Part shown: positions 17,948 through 23,933 of the stretch, piece by piece
Position numbering within the stretch: the first letter of the stretch is position 1
How the letters are laid out: every line of letters begins with the position of its first letter
NCBI GenBank assembly: GCA_029858565.1
Contig: JAOUEV010000049.1
Location: forward strand, 1 to 25,708
Length of the DNA stretch: 25,708 nt
Direction: 5' to 3'
Source: Nitrospirota bacterium
Lineage (GTDB): Bacteria > Nitrospirota > UBA9217
The notes under the pieces: generated by a model
Databases searched by the model: none
What the model saw: the letters and a program-made list of their open reading frames with translations, nothing else
Told to the model about the DNA's origin: nothing
Program-made: the position numbers and the translations under genes

Positions 17948-18808
17948 ATGGTCAAGATCGGCAAGAGTACTCCTCGCGCAGAACTTGCCTCCCTTCGTCG
18001 TGAAGTACGGAGGCTCCGGTCGGAGCTGAAGCGTCTGACGCCTTCCCTTGAGGTCCTGCTCAGGCGGCGCGGTTTCGCAGTTCACAAGGAGCAGCCTTCC
18101 GCTGATCTGCTCGTCCCCGCGGCCACCCTTCAGGACCGGTACTACCGGTTCCTGCACAAATACTCCTTCAGGCTCTTTCTTCGCGATGTGATCAAACATC
18201 AGCAGCTCTTCACTGCGGAGCAATTGGCGCGTTACTCCACGGCCAGGACCGTGCGGGCCTACATCGCGGTCCTTGAAGCGATGGGAATGGCGGAGCTGCG
18301 TCAGGGCGGCTACGGTCTTCTTGTCGGCCCGATCACGAGCTTTGGCGCGACGCTCGAATGGTACGTGGCGGAACTGCTCAGGCGGGAGTTCGGTGCGGAA
18401 ACGATATGGGGCGTCAAGTTCCGCGGGCGCGCGGTGGGCGGTGATTACGATGTGATCGCGAAGCTCGAGGGGAAGTTGTTGTACCTGGAAGTGAAGTCGT
18501 CGCCGCCCAAGCAGATCTATGACAGCGAGGTCGCCGCGTTCCTGGACCGGGTGGAGGACCTTGCTCCGGAGACCGCGGTGTTCCTTATGGACACGGAACT
18601 GCGGATGAAGGACAAGCTGGTGCCCATGTTCGAGGCGGCCCTGGCACAGCGGAGCGCTTATCCGCCGCAGGTAACGCGGATCGAACGTGAGCTGTTCAGC
18701 ATAGGGGACCGGATCTTTATCGTGAACGCAAAGGAGAGCATCCTGCAGAACATCGGCATCGTGGTGGGCAAGGCTGTGCGGCGGGGCTCCTGTGAAAAGA
18801 ATGATTAG
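17948..18808 (+). CDS. Hypothetical protein: coiled coil, winged-helix-like region and PD-(D/E)xK nuclease-like domain
   Basis: FGATLEWYV...GGDYDVIA....LLYLEVKS gives the E...D...ExK catalytic pattern of restriction-endonuclease-like folds; GGAG SD. Confidence 0.7.
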   Translation: MVKIGKSTPRAELASLRREVRRLRSELKRLTPSLEVLLRRRGFAVHKEQPSADLLVPAATLQDRYYRFLHKYSFRLFLRDVIKHQQLFTAEQLARYSTARTVRAYIAVLEAMGMAELRQGGYGLLVGPITSFGATLEWYVAELLRREFGAETIWGVKFRGRAVGGDYDVIAKLEGKLLYLEVKSSPPKQIYDSEVAAFLDRVEDLAPETAVFLMDTELRMKDKLVPMFEAALAQRSAYPPQVTRIERELFSIGDRIFIVNAKESILQNIGIVVGKAVRRGSCEKND

Positions 18809-18917
18809 CCACGGAAGCTGCGGATGCACATCCTGATCAACACGGATAGGTGTGAAAGAAAGAAGTGTTAGTGTTCTGAAACCAGTCCTTGCGACGAACC
18901 TGGCGTTTCCTGCCTTT

Positions 18918-18946
18918 CTTCGTGGCTTCGTGACTTCGTGCGAGAC
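18918..18946. repeat. Three 8-bp tandem units CTTCGTGN between convergent genes
   Basis: CTTCGTGG-CTTCGTGA-CTTCGTGC-GAGAC; degenerate CACGGA/CGGAT units at 18810-18847. Confidence 0.55.
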
Positions 18947-18973
18947 AGGTTCTCTGGTCTTTGGATCGATCTG

Positions 18974-19903
18974 CTAATAATCGTACCTCAATCCTACACT
19001 ATAGACGTTGTTGGTCGTGGCCGTATCGGGAACGTTCGAATCAGCCATTTCGTGATCATAACCAAGAGAGAAGCTCCAGGAGTCGCTCAGGTCCACGCCA
19101 AAGAAGACCGACACGGTCTGGGTGGTGACGGTGAAGTCCACGGGCAGATCGTACGTGCGCGACAGATAGCCGTAGCCCAGGTCCAGGGACGTGTTCTCCG
19201 AGGGCGAGAACCCGATCCAGGCGGTTCCGGAATGCCCATAATAGCTGTAGAGCGGAGAGTCAGCCCGGTTCCGTTCGAACTCATAGGTCTGCTTGAACCA
19301 GATGCTGTCGCTCACCGTTTCCTTGAGTCCTGCCGACGCGCCAAAGGCGGTTGAATCCCGGAGGTCGGACTTGAAATCCTTTGCCGCTGCCTTGAGCGAG
19401 CATCTTCCTGACAGGAGCTCGGTGAATCGCCTGGTAATCCCGGCGCTCAGAGAGCCCACGGTGAAGTCGAATTCATCATAGGTCGCGAATGAAGTGTGCG
19501 ATACAGCGCCAAGCACAAGGATGTCGGTCTTCTCGCCCCAGGATATCTTGCTCCCGATGTCAGCGGAGAGCGAGGTCGAGAAATCGCCCTGCTGCTCGGT
19601 CTGGCTGCTGGTGGTCCCGGTGCCGGTACCTGTGCTTGTCCCAGTCCCTCCGGGATTGTCATTCAACCCGCCCTGCTGCGCCTGCAGGATAGACATTCCC
19701 CCGGCCATGCCGCCCATACCTCCACCTCCGCTGGTCCCGCCGGTGTTCGGATTGTCCTGCACCAGACCGATGACATTATCATTGTATGATTCCTGCACAT
19801 CAAAAGAAAAGACCAGTCCGGCCTCGGCGCTTGAATAGGTGAACAGCAACAATGTCACAGCGGCGATGAGCATCAGGGTGCCGGATTTTGTAAGTTCTCG
19901 CAT
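18974..19903 (-). CDS. Predicted outer-membrane beta-barrel protein with Gly/Thr-rich insertion
   Basis: Signal peptide ending SAEA; amphipathic strands with alternating aromatic residues; terminal VGLRYDY beta-signal-like end; GGGGAG SD. Confidence 0.75.
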   Translation of the reverse strand: MRELTKSGTLMLIAAVTLLLFTYSSAEAGLVFSFDVQESYNDNVIGLVQDNPNTGGTSGGGGMGGMAGGMSILQAQQGGLNDNPGGTGTSTGTGTGTTSSQTEQQGDFSTSLSADIGSKISWGEKTDILVLGAVSHTSFATYDEFDFTVGSLSAGITRRFTELLSGRCSLKAAAKDFKSDLRDSTAFGASAGLKETVSDSIWFKQTYEFERNRADSPLYSYYGHSGTAWIGFSPSENTSLDLGYGYLSRTYDLPVDFTVTTQTVSVFFGVDLSDSWSFSLGYDHEMADSNVPDTATTNNVYSVGLRYDY

Positions 19904-19925
19904 GTCTTCTGCTCCCCGTAGGATG

Positions 19926-19964
19926 AGAATAAAGACCGGGCGTCCTCTGCAGCGGACACCCGGT
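19926..19964 (-). terminator. Hairpin / weak intrinsic terminator after the small secreted protein gene
   Basis: Minus strand ACCGGGTGTCC-gctgcaga-GGACGCCCGGT (11-bp stem with one G-U) followed by CTTTATTCT. Confidence 0.5.
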
Positions 19965-19980
19965 GAGCGTTACCGATAAC

Positions 19981-20304
19981 CTACTTGCCCGAGCGGGTCT
20001 GCGTGTCCCGGTGCTCCCGGTCCTGGGACCGCTCGTGCTTCTGGGTCTGCTTCTTGGTCTTTGATTTGACCTTCTTGCCGGATTTCTCCTGCTCCTGCTT
20101 TTTCGAGCCATCCTGCAGGCGGTCGCGGTCCCGCTCACGGGTCCGCTCCTGGGTCATTTCCTGGGTGCCTGCGGCCTTGCCGGTGCCCATCTTCTGCTCC
20201 TCGGTCTCCTTCTGTGTCTGCGTTTCGGCCGCACCCGCGGTAAATGTTGCCGGTCCGATAAGAAGCAGTGCTGCTGTCATAAGTGCCAGTCCCTTGCGTA
20301 GCAT
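19981..20304 (-). CDS. Small secreted, highly charged low-complexity protein (107 aa)
   Basis: GAGGAGG SD before ATG 20304; signal peptide MLRKGLALMTAALLLIGPATFTAGA; mature part rich in Q/E/K/R/T (TQERTRERDRDRLQDG). Confidence 0.75.
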   Translation of the reverse strand: MLRKGLALMTAALLLIGPATFTAGAAETQTQKETEEQKMGTGKAAGTQEMTQERTRERDRDRLQDGSKKQEQEKSGKKVKSKTKKQTQKHERSQDREHRDTQTRSGK

Positions 20305-20434
20305 AATGATCCCTCCTCTGTTGTCAATTGCCTTCGGGATGAGTCCCGAAGGGTGCGGGAGCGATTGGCCAGCACTCCCGCTGTGATCGTTCTGTCCGGA
20401 CGAGAACGGTTCTCTCAATATCCATTGTTCGTTA

Positions 20435-20467
20435 CCCATAAGACGAATGAACCGGGAAAAGGTTACA
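20435..20467 (-). promoter_or_regulatory. ECF-sigma-type promoter, copy 2 (TGTAAC-N16-CGTC)
   Basis: TGTAACCTTTTCCCGGTTCATTCGTCTTATGGG; 28/33 identical to the copy upstream of the sigma gene. Confidence 0.8.
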
Positions 20468-20476
20468 TCCATCCCT

Positions 20477-21364
20477 TTACTTTCCTCTGCCGCCGCGTAC
20501 GCTGTCACCGCGCCGCTCTGATCCGCCGTCCCGCGCGCCGCCCCTGCGATCGTCGCGTCGGTCCCTGCCGAGGTCGTCGTGCTGGGCCTTGGCCGCGTCT
20601 TCAGGGCTTTTTCCCCTGCGGATGCTGTCAGTGATCTGCTGCTGCATGCGATCAAAGTCCTTTTCCGAGTATCCCCGCGCCAGTCCCTGCTTGACCAGGC
20701 CCGCGGCGGAATCCGCCGGCACGCCGAACTCGACCAGGTCGGTGATCGCGCCTACTGCCCGGTCAAAGAGCACGAGCGATCCCTTCCGTTCAATGATCCT
20801 TCCGGCCGTATCGGAAACAGCGTCCGCTGGTATGGACCGCTCGTACGCACGGGCAACGGTCTCGACGGCAGTGTCCTTTACCGCGACGTTCCTGGCGGAG
20901 ACCCCTTTGCTGACCAGGTCATCCACGACTGGCCGGGCCGCGGCAAGATGTCCGACCAGGCGCTTGACCGCAGCAGCGATCCGCTCCTGGGGCACCTGTT
21001 TTGCCAGGCCCTGCTCGATCCTGCTCATGAGCGCTTTGACGGGCATGCTTTCGTTCTTCGCCTGCACTGCAAGGTCCAGCAGCCCGGTGATGCCGGCTGA
21101 GCCGACGTTCCGTTCAAGACCCCTGGCGACGACTGCCTCCACATCAGCGGCAGGGATGCCGGAACGGACCGCCTGCCGGGCATGGGCAGCGAGGAGGTCC
21201 TTTTCAGCAGGCGGCAGAGCAGAACGTTCGATAGCGCTGCGCGTTCCTTTTGTCAGGTCATCATCAACCGCTCCCGCAGGTCCGGCGCTCCCGAACAGAA
21301 CTGCTGCGAAAAGCGTAATAATGATGATCGCTTTCGATCGGTGGTTGGGATCAGGATATCTCAT
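20477..21364 (-). CDS. Exported alpha-helical repeat protein of unknown function
   Basis: Signal/TM segment; about four helical repeats of type (G/S)(I/V/M)P....L...GL.(R/K); R/D/G-rich tail; ATGA overlap with the anti-sigma stop. Confidence 0.8.
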   Translation of the reverse strand: MRYPDPNHRSKAIIIITLFAAVLFGSAGPAGAVDDDLTKGTRSAIERSALPPAEKDLLAAHARQAVRSGIPAADVEAVVARGLERNVGSAGITGLLDLAVQAKNESMPVKALMSRIEQGLAKQVPQERIAAAVKRLVGHLAAARPVVDDLVSKGVSARNVAVKDTAVETVARAYERSIPADAVSDTAGRIIERKGSLVLFDRAVGAITDLVEFGVPADSAAGLVKQGLARGYSEKDFDRMQQQITDSIRRGKSPEDAAKAQHDDLGRDRRDDRRGGARDGGSERRGDSVRGGRGK

Positions 21365-21969
21365 ATTTTTACCCTCACGACAGCATTGCGGTTGCCGAAT
21401 CCGTCGTCGCGGTATGCTTCCGCGCGCGGGTCAGTGATCCACTGCTCGCTGTCCACAATGAACATATAGGCGTACACGCCGGGCTGCAGCGGCAGTTCAA
21501 TGGTCCAGGTCCCGTTCTTCCGGGTCATCACATGGGTCCCGGTGCTCCACTTGTTGAAATCCCCTGCCACAGCAACCTGACGGGCGTTTGGCGCCTGAAG
21601 GTCCAGCCGGACGATCACCGTGTCCGGCCGTCTCGACGTGACCATCACGGCCGCGACAATGGCGAAGAGCAGTACCGCCGCGGCTGATGCAAGGTTCCAG
21701 CGAAGCACCCTGCTGCCGAAGAGGAACTCCTTCGCCCGCGCGAAAAAGGGCGCTCTTTTGCGCGGAAGCCTTGCCATGACCGACCGGGTGAAATCAGCGG
21801 GCGGTTCTTTTCTTCCTGCGCGGCCGAGGGTTCCCAGCGCCTCGTTCATGGCCTGATATTCACGGCTCAGGACCGGGTCCGCCTGGACCTGGCGCAGAAG
21901 CCGCTCCCGCTCCCCATCAGGAAGGTTCCCGTCGAGCAATCGGTGGATGATCGTAAGATCGTTCTTCAT
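21361..21969 (-). CDS. Putative anti-sigma factor: cytoplasmic anti-sigma domain, TM helix, CBM48/AMPK-type glycogen-binding domain
   Basis: LLDGNLPDGERERL and PPADFTRSVMARL (anti-sigma-like); TM LASAAAVLLFAIVAAVMV; VAVAGDFNKW...W...L.PG.Y.YMFIVD...WITDP...DDGFG.RN. ATGA-coupled to the sigma gene. Confidence 0.88.
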   Translation of the reverse strand: MKNDLTIIHRLLDGNLPDGERERLLRQVQADPVLSREYQAMNEALGTLGRAGRKEPPADFTRSVMARLPRKRAPFFARAKEFLFGSRVLRWNLASAAAVLLFAIVAAVMVTSRRPDTVIVRLDLQAPNARQVAVAGDFNKWSTGTHVMTRKNGTWTIELPLQPGVYAYMFIVDSEQWITDPRAEAYRDDGFGNRNAVVRVKI

Positions 21970-22526
21970 GGCCTGACTCCCTGCTTGTCCAACACTTCCC
22001 TGAGCCGCTCCCTGGCCCGGTGCGCCCTGACCTTGAGCGCCGCGATGCTGACGCCCAGGATCGCGGCGATCTCCTCGTATCCCAGCTCCTCAAGGTGTTT
22101 CAGGATCAGCACCTCGCGGTATTCAGGCGAAAGTCCGTCGAGAGCGTGCTGAACCGCCTCGCTGGTCTCATGAGAAGACGCGATCCGCTCCGGATCGGGA
22201 GCGGAGCTGCCCCTCAGCTCGGCAATATCGTCAACATCCACGGTCTCCCTGCGGGCCCGGCCATGGTCGCGGCACTTATTCAGCACGATGGTCGCGAGCC
22301 ACGTCGAGAACTTCGCGGTACCGCGAAACCGGTTGAGGCCTTCGTAGGCGGCGATAAAGCTGTCCTGGGCTATGTCGTTCGCGCTGTCGGCGTCGCCGGT
22401 CATACGGAACGCCAGGGTGTACGCCAGGACCTTGTACCGGTCCACAAGGACCGCGTAGGCATCCTCATCACCTTTCAGCGTGCGTTCGATCAGGTCGTTC
22501 TCTTCCTGGTGTCTGGTCTCATCCAT
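21966..22526 (-). CDS. ECF (sigma70 group 4) RNA polymerase sigma factor
   Basis: GDEDAYAVLVDRY, DIAQDSFI.AY..L..F, FSTWL.TI..N.CRD (region 2); L....REVLILK..E.L.YEEIA.ILG.S...K.R.HRAR (region 4). Alternative start at 22538. Confidence 0.95.
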   Translation of the reverse strand: MDETRHQEENDLIERTLKGDEDAYAVLVDRYKVLAYTLAFRMTGDADSANDIAQDSFIAAYEGLNRFRGTAKFSTWLATIVLNKCRDHGRARRETVDVDDIAELRGSSAPDPERIASSHETSEAVQHALDGLSPEYREVLILKHLEELGYEEIAAILGVSIAALKVRAHRARERLREVLDKQGVRP

Positions 22527-22533
22527 GTTGTTG

Positions 22534-22566
22534 CCCATAAGACGGTTGAACGCGAAAAAGGTTACA
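22534..22566 (-). promoter_or_regulatory. ECF-sigma-type promoter, copy 1 (autoregulatory; TGTAAC-N16-CGTC)
   Basis: TGTAACCTTTTTCGCGTTCAACCGTCTTATGGG directly upstream of the sigma gene; AAC in the -35 and CGTC in the -10 are typical ECF elements. Confidence 0.8.
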
Positions 22567-22573
22567 CCGGCCG

Positions 22574-22921
22574 CTACTCAGTTCCGACCAGGACCACCGA
22601 GTTCCTTCCGCCCAGACCGTCCTCAACCGAGGGAGCGCGGGGATCGACTATCCAATCTGCAGTGTTGACCAGGAACAGGTATTCGTATCTGCCCGGCATA
22701 AGGAACAGCGTGATCGTCCAGGAACCGCTCCGGTCCGGACCCGCAAGTACATGGCTCGTGGGGTCCCACTTGTTAAAGGAACCGGCGACGGTGACAGAAA
22801 CGGCATCGGGTGCTGACAAGGTGAATGTGATTGGTACGGCACGGGCGGTTTCCGCTGCCGGTGCGGTCTTGCCAGAAAGGGCTGCAGCAAAGAACAGGAC
22901 TATGGCGAGCAGACGGATCAT
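22574..22921 (-). CDS. Secreted stand-alone CBM48/AMPK-type glycogen-binding domain protein
   Basis: Signal peptide MIRLLAIVLFFAAALS; APDA.SVTVAGSFNKW, W...L.L.PGRYEYLFLV...W..DP, EDGLGGRNS. Confidence 0.88.
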   Translation of the reverse strand: MIRLLAIVLFFAAALSGKTAPAAETARAVPITFTLSAPDAVSVTVAGSFNKWDPTSHVLAGPDRSGSWTITLFLMPGRYEYLFLVNTADWIVDPRAPSVEDGLGGRNSVVLVGTE

Positions 22922-22951
22922 GGCGGTCTCGAAGGGCTCCCTGTACAGCGG

Positions 22952-22997
22952 AAAAAATAAAAAAGGACCACCAATTGCACGAATGCAACTGATGGCC
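22952..22997 (-). terminator. Intrinsic terminator
   Basis: Minus strand GGCCATCAGTTGCA-TTCG-TGCAATTGGTGGTC (14-bp stem with G-U pairs, UUCG loop) followed by CTTTTTTATTTTTT. Confidence 0.75.
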
Positions 22998-23068
22998 TCC
23001 TGATAAATTATAGGATGCTAATGCTAGTATACTATAGGAAATGAAGCACTGCTGTGCCAGAGCGCATT

Positions 23069-23623
23069 TTACTGCGCGGCAGGGCCCCGGGACATGGGTT
23101 TCCCTTCGCCGGAGAGATCCGGATGTTTTGGATGCCGCGGCGGCACTGCCGGTGCATTGGCGGCATTGTCGTGGTTCGCCGTAGGAACTTTTTTCATATC
23201 CCGCCGCGATTCATTATGTACCTTTTTGACCTGGCTCACACACTTGCCCAGTTTAATTCCGAGCTGATCCGCGATGACGCCCCAGCCGAGCACGGGCGGA
23301 CCCTGACGAAGCGCCACTACCCGTCCGATGTTCTCTTCCGTGGCCCCGCCGGCAAGGGACTGCGCGCAGGAGAGGGTGACTGTGATCTCACCATAGCCAA
23401 GTCCTTTCTCGCGCAGCGACGCGATCCGATCGTTGCTGATGGCGAAATCGCGGTTCAGTCGCGACACCACGGCTTTTTCACCTTCCGGCGTGGCCGCAGC
23501 CCGGTCGAGCCGCGCAGCTTCGCGCTGCAGGTTCTGCTCATGCTTTGACGGGGCGGCGAATGCCGTGCCAGCGGATGCAAGGAGCGAAAGACACAGGACC
23601 AGGACGACCGGACGCATGTTCAT
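23069..23623 (-). CDS. Secreted hypothetical protein with duplicated LR..G.G(Y/W)G.I motif
   Basis: GGAGGAGG SD before ATG 23623; signal peptide ending AFA; SLREKGLGYGEI and ALRQGPPVLGWGVIADQLG. Confidence 0.78.
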   Translation of the reverse strand: MNMRPVVLVLCLSLLASAGTAFAAPSKHEQNLQREAARLDRAAATPEGEKAVVSRLNRDFAISNDRIASLREKGLGYGEITVTLSCAQSLAGGATEENIGRVVALRQGPPVLGWGVIADQLGIKLGKCVSQVKKVHNESRRDMKKVPTANHDNAANAPAVPPRHPKHPDLSGEGKPMSRGPAAQ

Positions 23624-23727
23624 CGAAACCTCCTCCTTTTCCAGCCGTTCACGAGGACCGGAGAACGCATGGCAGTATTGTAGCGAAGGCGAAAGGTTTT
23701 TTCCACAGTTTTCATGAGCGGGCCTGC

Positions 23728-23756
23728 TTGACACCGGGCACGGCCTTTGTTACTAT
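23728..23756 (+). promoter_or_regulatory. sigma70 promoter for the riboswitch and P-type ATPase
   Basis: TTGACA (23728-23733), 17-bp spacer, TGnTACTAT (-10 at 23751-23756), immediately before the aptamer. Confidence 0.8.
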
Positions 23757-23763
23757 TGAACGC

Positions 23764-23863
23764 GTAAAGGGGAGTAGCACACTACAGTGCAGATCGTCAT
23801 CACGTCCCGCGAACGCGGGACCGGTCTCACTGGTCAGGAAGTCCTGATGCGCGAGACCTTTAC
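23764..23863 (+). ncRNA. yybP-ykoY (Mn2+-sensing) riboswitch aptamer
   Basis: GTAAAGG-GGAGTAGC ... CGTCATCAC ... hairpin TCCCGCGAACGCGGGA ... GCGAGA-CCTTTAC. P1 pairs 23764-23770 with 23857-23863. It precedes a P-type ATPase, a known context for this class. Confidence 0.88.
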
Positions 23864-23898
23864 CACGATGGTAGCTGTGCGTGGTAAAGGTTTTTTTT
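23856..23898 (+). terminator. Riboswitch expression-platform terminator
   Basis: ACCTTTACCACG (23856-23867) pairs with CGTGGTAAAGGT (23880-23891), followed by a T run to 23898; overlaps the 3' strand of P1. Confidence 0.88.
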
Positions 23899-23933
23899 CG
23901 TCCCGGACCATCATTCAGACCGGAGGTAGCTCA

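Follow-up and report, generated by a model that had tools for sequence, protein, structure and literature searches.

Organization of the gene cluster

The DNA analyzed here, in the following called the window, is the 25,708 nucleotide (nt) contig JAOUEV010000049.1 of a Nitrospirota bacterium (GTDB lineage UBA9217; assembly GCA_029858565.1). On its minus strand, six tightly packed open reading frames (ORFs), g1 to g6, occupy the positions 18974-22921 (Table 1), and the ATGA start/stop overlaps at g2/g3 and g3/g4 can both be seen in the sequence. An initial annotation, made from the sequence alone, had listed six co-oriented genes with these coordinates and both overlaps, with which the ORFs and the sequence agree. 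It had described them as a gene for a sigma factor of the extracytoplasmic function (ECF) type with an anti-sigma factor gene, linked to carbohydrate-binding modules (CBM) of family 48 and possibly sensing alpha-glucan. To this description, both ECF promoters, the secreted gene g0 and a GGDEF target outside the window are added.

Table 1. Genes, predicted promoters and hairpins of the cluster (positions refer to the window; aa, amino acids)
Feature	Position	Strand	Description
g0	23069..23623	-	secreted protein without family, 184 aa; ORF and ribosome-binding site
Terminator-like hairpin, g0/g1 gap	22966..22997	-	14-pair stem, then T-run; consensus match only
g1	22574..22921	-	secreted stand-alone CBM48-fold domain, 115 aa
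Promoter P1, TGTAAC-N16-CGTCTTAT	22538..22566	-	predicted, ECF-type; within the 35 nt separating g1 and the sigma factor gene
g2	21966..22538	-	ECF sigma factor, 190 aa; likely true start ATG at 22526
g3	21361..21969	-	single-pass anti-sigma factor, 202 aa; RsiW-like N-terminus, CBM48-fold C-terminus
g4	20477..21364	-	exported helical-repeat protein, 295 aa; charged disordered tail
Promoter P2, TGTAAC-N16-CGTCTTAT	20439..20467	-	predicted, ECF-type; upstream of g5
g5	19981..20304	-	small secreted protein, highly charged, probably disordered, 107 aa
Terminator-like hairpin, g5/g6 gap	19935..19964	-	11-pair stem with 8 G-C pairs, T-run; consensus match only
g6	18974..19903	-	probable outer-membrane beta-barrel, 309 aa

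Sigma factor and anti-sigma factor

The product of g2 matches the Pfam families Sigma70_r2 (E-value 8.2e-17) and Sigma70_r4_2 (3e-17) and none of the other sigma regions. With sigma2 and sigma4 domains only and a length of about 190 aa, it shows the layout of the ECF (group IV) sigma factors. The model TIGR02937 (sigma70-ECF) was matched with 108.5 bits at a cut-off of 42.9, and SigW models were among the best NCBIfam matches. The first ATG of the ORF is located inside the -10 element of promoter P1 (CGTCTTATG, 22526-22544), and an N-terminal alignment indicates M5, the ATG at 22526 four codons downstream, as the start common to the homologues. Since this ATG follows the -10 element after about 10 nt, the mRNA of the sigma factor would be nearly leaderless.

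The product of g3 has one hydrophobic segment (residues 91-114). Using a profile of the g3 family, its N-terminus was found to match the anti-sigma domain of RsiW (5wuq_C, E-value 1.8e-10, profile positions 6-74), and the NCBIfam model NF052375 ('antisigma') was matched with 55.5 bits, below its cut-off of 100. The zinc-binding anti-sigma (ZAS) subfamily is characterized by the motif H-x3-C-x2-C, which is absent here: the first 35 residues are devoid of Cys, and the CxxC of RsiW aligns with D-P-V-L, so that g3 carries no zinc motif. The residue H9 is invariant. In neither g2 nor g3 was a match to the SigI or RsgI families found (Pfam, E≤0.1).

The assignment as an ECF sigma/anti-sigma module is thereby supported by the two sigma domains, TIGR02937 and the match to the RsiW domain. 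Judged from the sequence, g2 is an ECF sigma factor and g3 a single-pass anti-sigma factor with a predicted RsiW-like cytoplasmic domain and a predicted CBM48 fold on the periplasmic side; the inhibition of g2 by g3 is putative. Directly in front of the membrane segment and outside of the part aligned to RsiW, g3 carries the motif R-V-L-R-W-N (residues 87-92, about 21694-21711 on the minus strand), which all 20 of the anti-sigma homologues aligned share without change.

Conservation of the cluster

A pattern scan with one genome per species resulted in 79 loci, 41 of which belong to the Nitrospirota; counts of present among testable loci refer to those long enough for the respective test. The 41 Nitrospirota loci keep the order g1-g2-g3-g4-(g5 and/or g0)-g6. 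In this context, g1 was found directly upstream of the sigma factor gene in 34 of 35 testable loci, g2 in 37 of 37, g4 in 36 of 36 and g6 in 25 of 26, and the start of g4 overlaps the stop of g3 by 4 nt in 33 of 36 loci. Co-occurrence was analyzed in 41 whole genomes, consisting of the own genome (G000) and 40 relatives. A full-length g3 is encoded in 16 and g4 in 17 of these, and neither was found in the other 24. In 15 of the 16 genomes with g3, g4 abuts it; in the remaining one (G032) both are about 500 nt apart with a CBM48 match in between, and the seventeenth g4 (G010) is adjoined by only the CBM part of g3.

With local hidden Markov models, the core could also be identified in Gemmatimonadota, a metagenome-assembled genome (MAG) of the Fibrobacteraceae (Fibrobacterota), Balneolales, Myxococcota and Syntrophobacteraceae. 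In these, the sigma factor gene is followed by genes for the anti-sigma-CBM48 protein, a second CBM48 protein and a g4-like protein, in this order. The conservation of the neighbourhood, proposed as a check in the initial annotation, thus extends from a co-conserved gene set in the Nitrospirota to a core in other phyla. In two closely related Syntrophobacteraceae MAGs (L059 and L063), a single ORF of 446 aa comprises the anti-sigma domain, the membrane segment, the CBM48 domain and a g4-like domain, and a delta-proteobacterial MAG (L057) contains the same anti-sigma/g4 fusion broken in two. All three loci carry two tandem sigma/anti-sigma-CBM48/g4 modules, one fused and one unfused.

Predicted promoters and regulon

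The sequence TGTAACC-N15-CGTCTTA is present both in the 35 nt that separate g1 from g2 and upstream of g5. A -35 element with AAC and a -10 element with CGT are the hallmark of ECF promoters. The exact pattern occurs twice in the window and in none of 100 shuffled versions, and twice in the own genome of 3.9 Mb and not in the reversed control. A relaxed pattern was detected just upstream of the sigma factor gene in 36 of 37 testable loci, and the 37th (L006) has a site of its own; as a control, 763 kb of reversed sequence gave 11 matches. Furthermore, a position weight matrix was built only from the sites of 28 relatives. In the own genome, it detected three sites, with the top score of 47.8 in front of g5 (P2), 43.4 in front of the sigma factor gene (P1) and 42.8 on contig C11, followed by 14.6 for the next best match, and no control scored above 12.

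The third copy (C11:305-333, minus strand) is located outside the window in front of a gene for a GAF-GGDEF diguanylate cyclase. This ORF runs off C11 and continues on contig C103 (C103:6-1550; GGDEF, E-value 3.8e-52). One predicted promoter type marks three transcription units, i.e., sigma factor-anti-sigma factor-g4, g5-g6 and the GAF-GGDEF cyclase. P1 and P2 are predicted ECF-type promoters, and their dependence on g2 is putative.

Among the relatives, the motif was found in 13 of 24 genomes of the same family, with one to three copies per genome, in none of 16 genomes of other families and not in the reversed control. In these genomes it precedes the sigma factor gene, a g5-like gene (G012) and genes for very Met-rich lipoproteins, for another secreted family and for DUF5666 lipoproteins. 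A sigma-70-type promoter scan resulted in weak matches only and was not used, and the search of 18700-23900 against Rfam at gathering thresholds gave no match. The strong hairpin between g5 and g6, which is followed by a T-run, may act in transcription attenuation.

CBM48-fold domains of g1 and g3

The search with the Pfam families PF16561 (AMPK1_CBM, cut-off 26.8 bits) and PF02922 (CBM_48, cut-off 22.4 bits), likewise suggested initially, gave matches above both cut-offs for both proteins: 40.4 and 35.2 bits for g1, and 47.9 (residues 128-201) and 43.9 bits for g3. The CBM48-fold domain of g3 spans residues of about 118-202. As it lies beyond the single membrane segment, it would be periplasmic if the RsiW-like N-terminus faces the cytoplasm, in agreement with the earlier placement of the CBM48 domain outside of the inner membrane. 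In g1, an N-terminal hydrophobic signal-like segment (residues 1-20) precedes the domain.

Both CBM domains share 48% identity. W141 and W177 of g3 are invariant in 41 of 41 family members and align with the Trp residues of FNNW and GQW in the CBM of the beta2 subunit of AMP-activated protein kinase (AMPK), which we take to be the glycogen-stacking pair. The g1 family keeps the residues of this face (W52, W90, [DE]100-D101-G102-[LF]103 and N107) and has an invariant E80 and a G-P-D insert as features of its own. A third AMPK1_CBM protein is encoded on contig C55 of the own genome (2667-3026, minus strand); it consists of 119 aa without signal peptide, stands alone and is located beside transposase-like genes.

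The helical protein g4 and its predicted complex with the CBM48 domain

The g4 protein starts with an N-terminal signal-like segment and has no match above cut-off in Pfam or NCBIfam. Its AlphaFold2 model is all-helical with 13 helices and a mean per-residue confidence (pLDDT) of 89.6. In a Foldseek search of the PDB, no match at E≤0.001 was obtained; the structural matches listed are mainly designed helical repeats and TAL effectors with TM-scores of at most 0.3, and the search of the Atlas gave unnamed clusters only. The best conserved stretch is RIEQGL[SA]KGVPxERI (residues 113-127). The family is large: an exhaustive profile search resulted in 2336 representative clusters with E≤0.001, of which 910 have E≤1e-10, and none of the 24 annotated matches among the 8000 best-sharing candidates scored carries a Pfam domain or an informative name.

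A complex of g4 (residues 36-275) and the CBM48 domain of g3 (residues 112-202) was modelled in three runs together with three controls. The interface score ipSAE reached 0.90, 0.89 and 0.90, versus 0.01 for the best of the three controls, with a partner pLDDT of 89 and an agreement of contacts between the runs of at least 94%. In the calibration, 58 of 80 solved complexes attained the mark applied, as did 2 of 110 mismatched pairs; these counts are valid only roughly because own alignments were used here. Since g4 has no solved relative, the result is not explained by the memory of a similar solved complex.

In the model, the interface includes W141, W177, E184-F191 and N195 of the CBM domain and D74, residues 114-124 and further turns of the concave face of g4. 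Interface positions are more conserved than the remaining ones, both in g4 (0.66 vs 0.49, permutation p 1e-4) and in the CBM domain (0.84 vs 0.73, p 0.03). The modelling suggests that g4 binds the CBM48 domain of g3 on its canonical sugar face.

Secreted proteins, outer-membrane barrel and barrel fusions

The g0 protein has a signal-like segment (residues 1-25) and no match in Pfam or NCBIfam. Homologues are present in 10 of 21 testable Nitrospirota loci, where their place in the cluster varies: they precede g1, follow g6 or lie between g4 and g6. The g5 protein, also with a signal-like segment, is composed to a large part of K (14%), T (13%), Q (11%), E (10%) and R (9%), and nothing above cut-off was found for it in Pfam and NCBIfam. 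Similar small secreted proteins are encoded at its position in nine loci (L003, L004, L009, L016, L018, L028, L034, L041 and L042).

For g6, a signal-like segment and a Pfam match to BBP2_2 with 16.9 bits, below the cut-off of 23.7, were found. Its Atlas model (predicted TM-score, pTM, 0.72) matches other predicted models with TM-scores of 0.60-0.84, the clusters of which are partly annotated as BBP2_2, DUF2860, OMP_b-brl or SlipAM, so g6 is a probable outer-membrane beta-barrel. Near its N-terminus, residues of about 50-105 form a low-complexity insert rich in Gly, Met and Thr.

In Gemmatimonadota and other phyla, the second CBM48 domain is found at the C-terminal end of a protein about 400 aa long. 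In the model of such a protein from locus L050 (pLDDT 80.6), a signal peptide is followed by 14 strands and a CBM48 sandwich. It has 229 PDB matches at E≤0.001, of which the top-ranked ones are almost all outer-membrane barrels, and its CBM superposes on that of AMPK beta1 (4yef_B, TMt 0.83). The g1-like protein of the Syntrophobacteraceae carries an L-A-C lipobox. The second CBM48 domain is thus membrane-tethered elsewhere and free in the Nitrospirota, which retain g6 as a separate barrel.

Proposed function

We interpret the cluster, with a probability of roughly one half, as an envelope-signalling switch of the ECF sigma/anti-sigma kind, similar to RsiW and RseA-RseB, in which a CBM48 fold would serve as the docking module. 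In this mechanism, the concave face of g4 with its motif RIEQGL[SA]KGVP would dock on the sugar face of the g3 domain (W141, W177, D188-F191 and N195), and g4 would act as a periplasmic co-regulator of the anti-sigma factor, as RseB does for RseA. As g1 keeps the same CBM48 face, it would probably compete for g4 or hand it over, and by this exchange the anti-sigma factor in the inner membrane would be linked to the state of the outer membrane. The release of the sigma factor would most likely occur via regulated proteolysis, a route made plausible by the RseP-type M50 protease that is encoded in the own genome. The free sigma factor would then raise the expression of its own operon and of the secreted g5 and the barrel g6, as well as the synthesis of cyclic di-GMP (c-di-GMP).

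Tentatively, and on balance rather improbably, this may amount to a trans-envelope partner-switch, in which the alpha-solenoid g4 is shared between an outer-membrane CBM48 domain (g1, with a barrel fused to it in other phyla) and that of the anti-sigma factor, so that changes at the outer membrane would set both the activity of the sigma factor and c-di-GMP synthesis. An ancestral starch-binding face of CBM48 would have been turned into a protein docking site, and the switch could in addition be gated by a glycan, provided that a polysaccharide competes with g4 for this face. Reuse of the fold for protein contacts had been offered as a second alternative in the initial annotation and gains support from the predicted complex of g4 and CBM48; its idea of a trans-envelope module is strengthened by the barrel-CBM48 fusions in other phyla. 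The contact predicted here is the one between CBM48 and the helical protein, not those of CBM with CBM or with the barrel named in the initial annotation.

Several points weigh against the switch. The complex of g4 and CBM48, suggestive as it may be, is a model and not a measurement, and the role given to g1 is pure inference. In an hhalign comparison, no homology could be detected between the g6 family and the barrel portions of 18 barrel-CBM48 proteins (probability 5%), so that only fold and position of the genes underlie the idea of split versus fused forms. All anti-sigma/g4 fusions stem from a single lineage and are therefore counted as one event. In favour of the switch, metatranscriptome contigs that are 95-99% alike (three runs of one study) cover g2, g3, g4, g5 and part of g6. 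No cover was obtained for g0, g1 and the larger portion of g6, from which no conclusion is drawn. These contigs stand for presence in RNA libraries only, with no transcript starts and with possible DNA carry-over.

To the same side belongs the kinship of the CBM48 domain. The residues of the predicted interface (both Trp and DP..A..Y..DG.G..NAV) are also found in the domain of a pullulanase of glycoside hydrolase family 13 (GH13; 5ot1), and the closest long relatives of the CBM domain are proteins of the GH13 alpha-amylase family with 43-48% identity over the CBM part. As these residues go back to the ancestor of this CBM48 subtype, their invariance is not specific to binding of g4 and fits retained sugar binding equally; together with the GH13-linked kin, this means that sugar binding may be retained and that a glycan could compete with g4.

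A rather doubtful explanation, which can be combined with the preferred one, builds on this kinship: the periplasmic CBM48 domains would bind alpha-glucan or an envelope or exo-polysaccharide via W141, W177 and N195 and thereby control the anti-sigma factor, with g4 as an accessory or displaced by the glycan. The Pfam matches of both domains and the alignment of both Trp with presumed sugar-stacking residues are in line with it, as are parts of the regulon. In locus L035, the motif precedes a gene for a glycosyltransferase of family 2 (GT2; 1880-2959) that resembles chitin and cellulose synthases, a closely related GT2 gene directly follows g4 in L030 (L030:7622-8734), and a GGDEF cyclase belongs to the own regulon. 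c-di-GMP often controls exopolysaccharide synthesis. However, where the CBM of AMPK beta2 has the Lys of QYKF, 28 of 41 family members carry Met and 12 carry Ser, and the predicted contact with g4 covers the sugar face. Furthermore, the Pfam scan of 20 window ORFs (smaller ORFs lay outside the scan) revealed neither a glycoside hydrolase nor a sugar transporter nor a glucan synthase, which for the first two agrees with what had been noted initially for the cluster, and the downstream genes in relatives mostly code for Met-rich or unknown secreted proteins and not for carbohydrate functions. The sensing of alpha-glucan, which gave the initial annotation its title, is shown by nothing in this analysis.

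The Met-rich proteins of relatives also weaken the case for the switch and hint at metals or oxidants as a signal. In this unlikely case, the tails of g4 and g5 homologues, which are flexible and rich in Gly, Met and His, or else g4 as such would sense metals of the copper or silver type or oxidants in a manner similar to CnrX or ZraP, and the regulon would supply methionine-rich periplasmic sponges. Most g4 homologues do end in G/M/H-rich tails, the g5-position proteins of relatives end in GMG repeats or, in L039 (L039:7759-8052), are His-rich, and the motif precedes extremely Met/Gly-rich lipoproteins and secreted proteins without Pfam match in five loci (L007:3873-4835, L023:3108-4850, L039:4043-4867, L021:2688-3389 and L006:696-1220). 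The tail of g4 in the window, in contrast, is rich in Arg and Asp, and Met and His are scarce in both window proteins (1.4% each in g4; 3.7% Met, 1.9% His in g5), so that this feature is not conserved where the core is. The cluster contains no gene for metal efflux or metal resistance, and the adjacent P-type ATPase matches Cation_ATPase_N and Cation_ATPase, which is read as the Ca/Mg type and not as the heavy-metal class.

It is similarly improbable that g1, g4, g5 and g6 form a device for export or assembly at the outer membrane, e.g., a barrel of the SlipAM or BBP2 kind together with periplasmic adaptors, and that the CBM48 domain of the anti-sigma factor does no more than report the assembly state of this device. 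The clusters of surface-lipoprotein-assembly modifiers (SlipAM) and BBP2 barrels among the model neighbours of g6, the barrel-CBM48 fusions and the position of g5 and g6 behind a predicted sigma-dependent promoter would fit such a device. The Atlas neighbours are generic barrels, however, neither a cargo nor an energy source is evident, and the core of the Gemmatimonadota type is devoid of g5 or g0 equivalents.

Bacteria use ECF sigma factors as a major route of signalling; to our knowledge, most ECF groups have no known input. In the literature covered, no description of an anti-sigma factor with a CBM48 or AMPK1_CBM domain was found. The main text of the ECF re-classification (PMC7826278) contains none of the terms glycogen, AMPK, isoamylase, Nitrospir* and Gemmatimonad*; its per-group supplements, which possibly list this group, lay outside this coverage. 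New here are the modelled contact of g4 with the sugar face of CBM48, the two kinds of fusions and the three-site regulon with a GGDEF target. The models suggest a new design of envelope signalling, not a system for starch foraging.

The module spans at least five phyla, and its partner family g4 is large and unnamed. The reuse of a carbohydrate-binding fold as a protein docking module is a testable hypothesis. Sigma factor, anti-sigma factor and promoter form a compact, probably orthogonal set with three sites in the genome, and the proposed ECF switch would be linked directly to c-di-GMP synthesis. The partner-switch, if true, would represent a trans-envelope route that is independent of TonB and unlike RseB/DegS.

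Comparison with known systems

Among known systems, sigmaW-RsiW of Bacillus subtilis is similar in the RsiW-like N-terminus of g3, in the SigW models among the best matches of g2 and in the single-pass anti-sigma factor with an extracytoplasmic domain. RsiW is removed by regulated proteolysis. Different from RsiW, g3 has no zinc motif and a CBM48-fold outer domain, the host is diderm, and there is an obligatory periplasmic partner, g4.

The order of sigma factor, anti-sigma factor and periplasmic binder, the translational coupling and the own ECF-type promoter of the sigma factor gene are shared with sigmaE-RseA-RseB of E. coli and AlgU-MucA-MucB of Pseudomonas, as is the contact of the binder with the periplasmic domain of the anti-sigma factor, which is predicted for g4. 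The likeness of g4 to RseB and MucB is functional only, as g4 is all-helical with no MucB_RseB match and no PDB match at E≤0.001. Unlike these systems, the present one has a second copy of the sensor domain, free or fused to a barrel, and a regulon of three promoters.

The barrel-CBM48 proteins of other phyla resemble FecI-FecR-FecA in that a barrel with a periplasmic domain is encoded beside an ECF sigma factor and a single-pass anti-sigma factor. In contrast to that system, g3 and g6 have no Pfam match to FecR, STN or TonB-dependent receptors, the barrel is small (about 14 strands in the fused form, 309 aa for g6) with the signalling domain at its C-terminus, and in the Nitrospirota barrel and CBM48 domain are encoded by separate genes.

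With SigI-RsgI of Clostridium (Acetivibrio) thermocellum, the cluster shares an anti-sigma factor with the fold of a carbohydrate-binding module outside the membrane. SigI is not an ECF sigma factor, RsgI has an N-terminal domain of its own, and the hosts are monoderm; RsgI_N matches and glycoside hydrolase targets were not found here. CnrX is likewise a helical periplasmic sensor encoded together with an anti-sigma factor and an ECF sigma factor (CnrH-CnrY-CnrX, Cupriavidus). It differs in that g4 has no match to it in sequence or fold, in gene order and in the metal-resistance genes, which are missing here.

Finally, the CBM48 domains share fold, Pfam family and both Trp residues with the CBM of AMPK beta and the CBM48 of GH13 enzymes. 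In contrast to these, the module is exported here, located on an anti-sigma factor or standing alone, carries Met or Ser at the Lys position of QYKF and is predicted to hold a protein on its sugar face.

Neighbouring genes

The other genes of the window encode SHMT, PriA, a hybrid histidine kinase, a CsgG-like protein, a DUF4401 protein, a beta-lactamase-fold protein, a thioesterase, a SulP/STAS permease and the P-type cation ATPase described above. Converging on g6, a 286-aa protein without family is encoded on the plus strand (17948-18808), which is conserved beside the cluster in 8 related loci with 56-71% identity.

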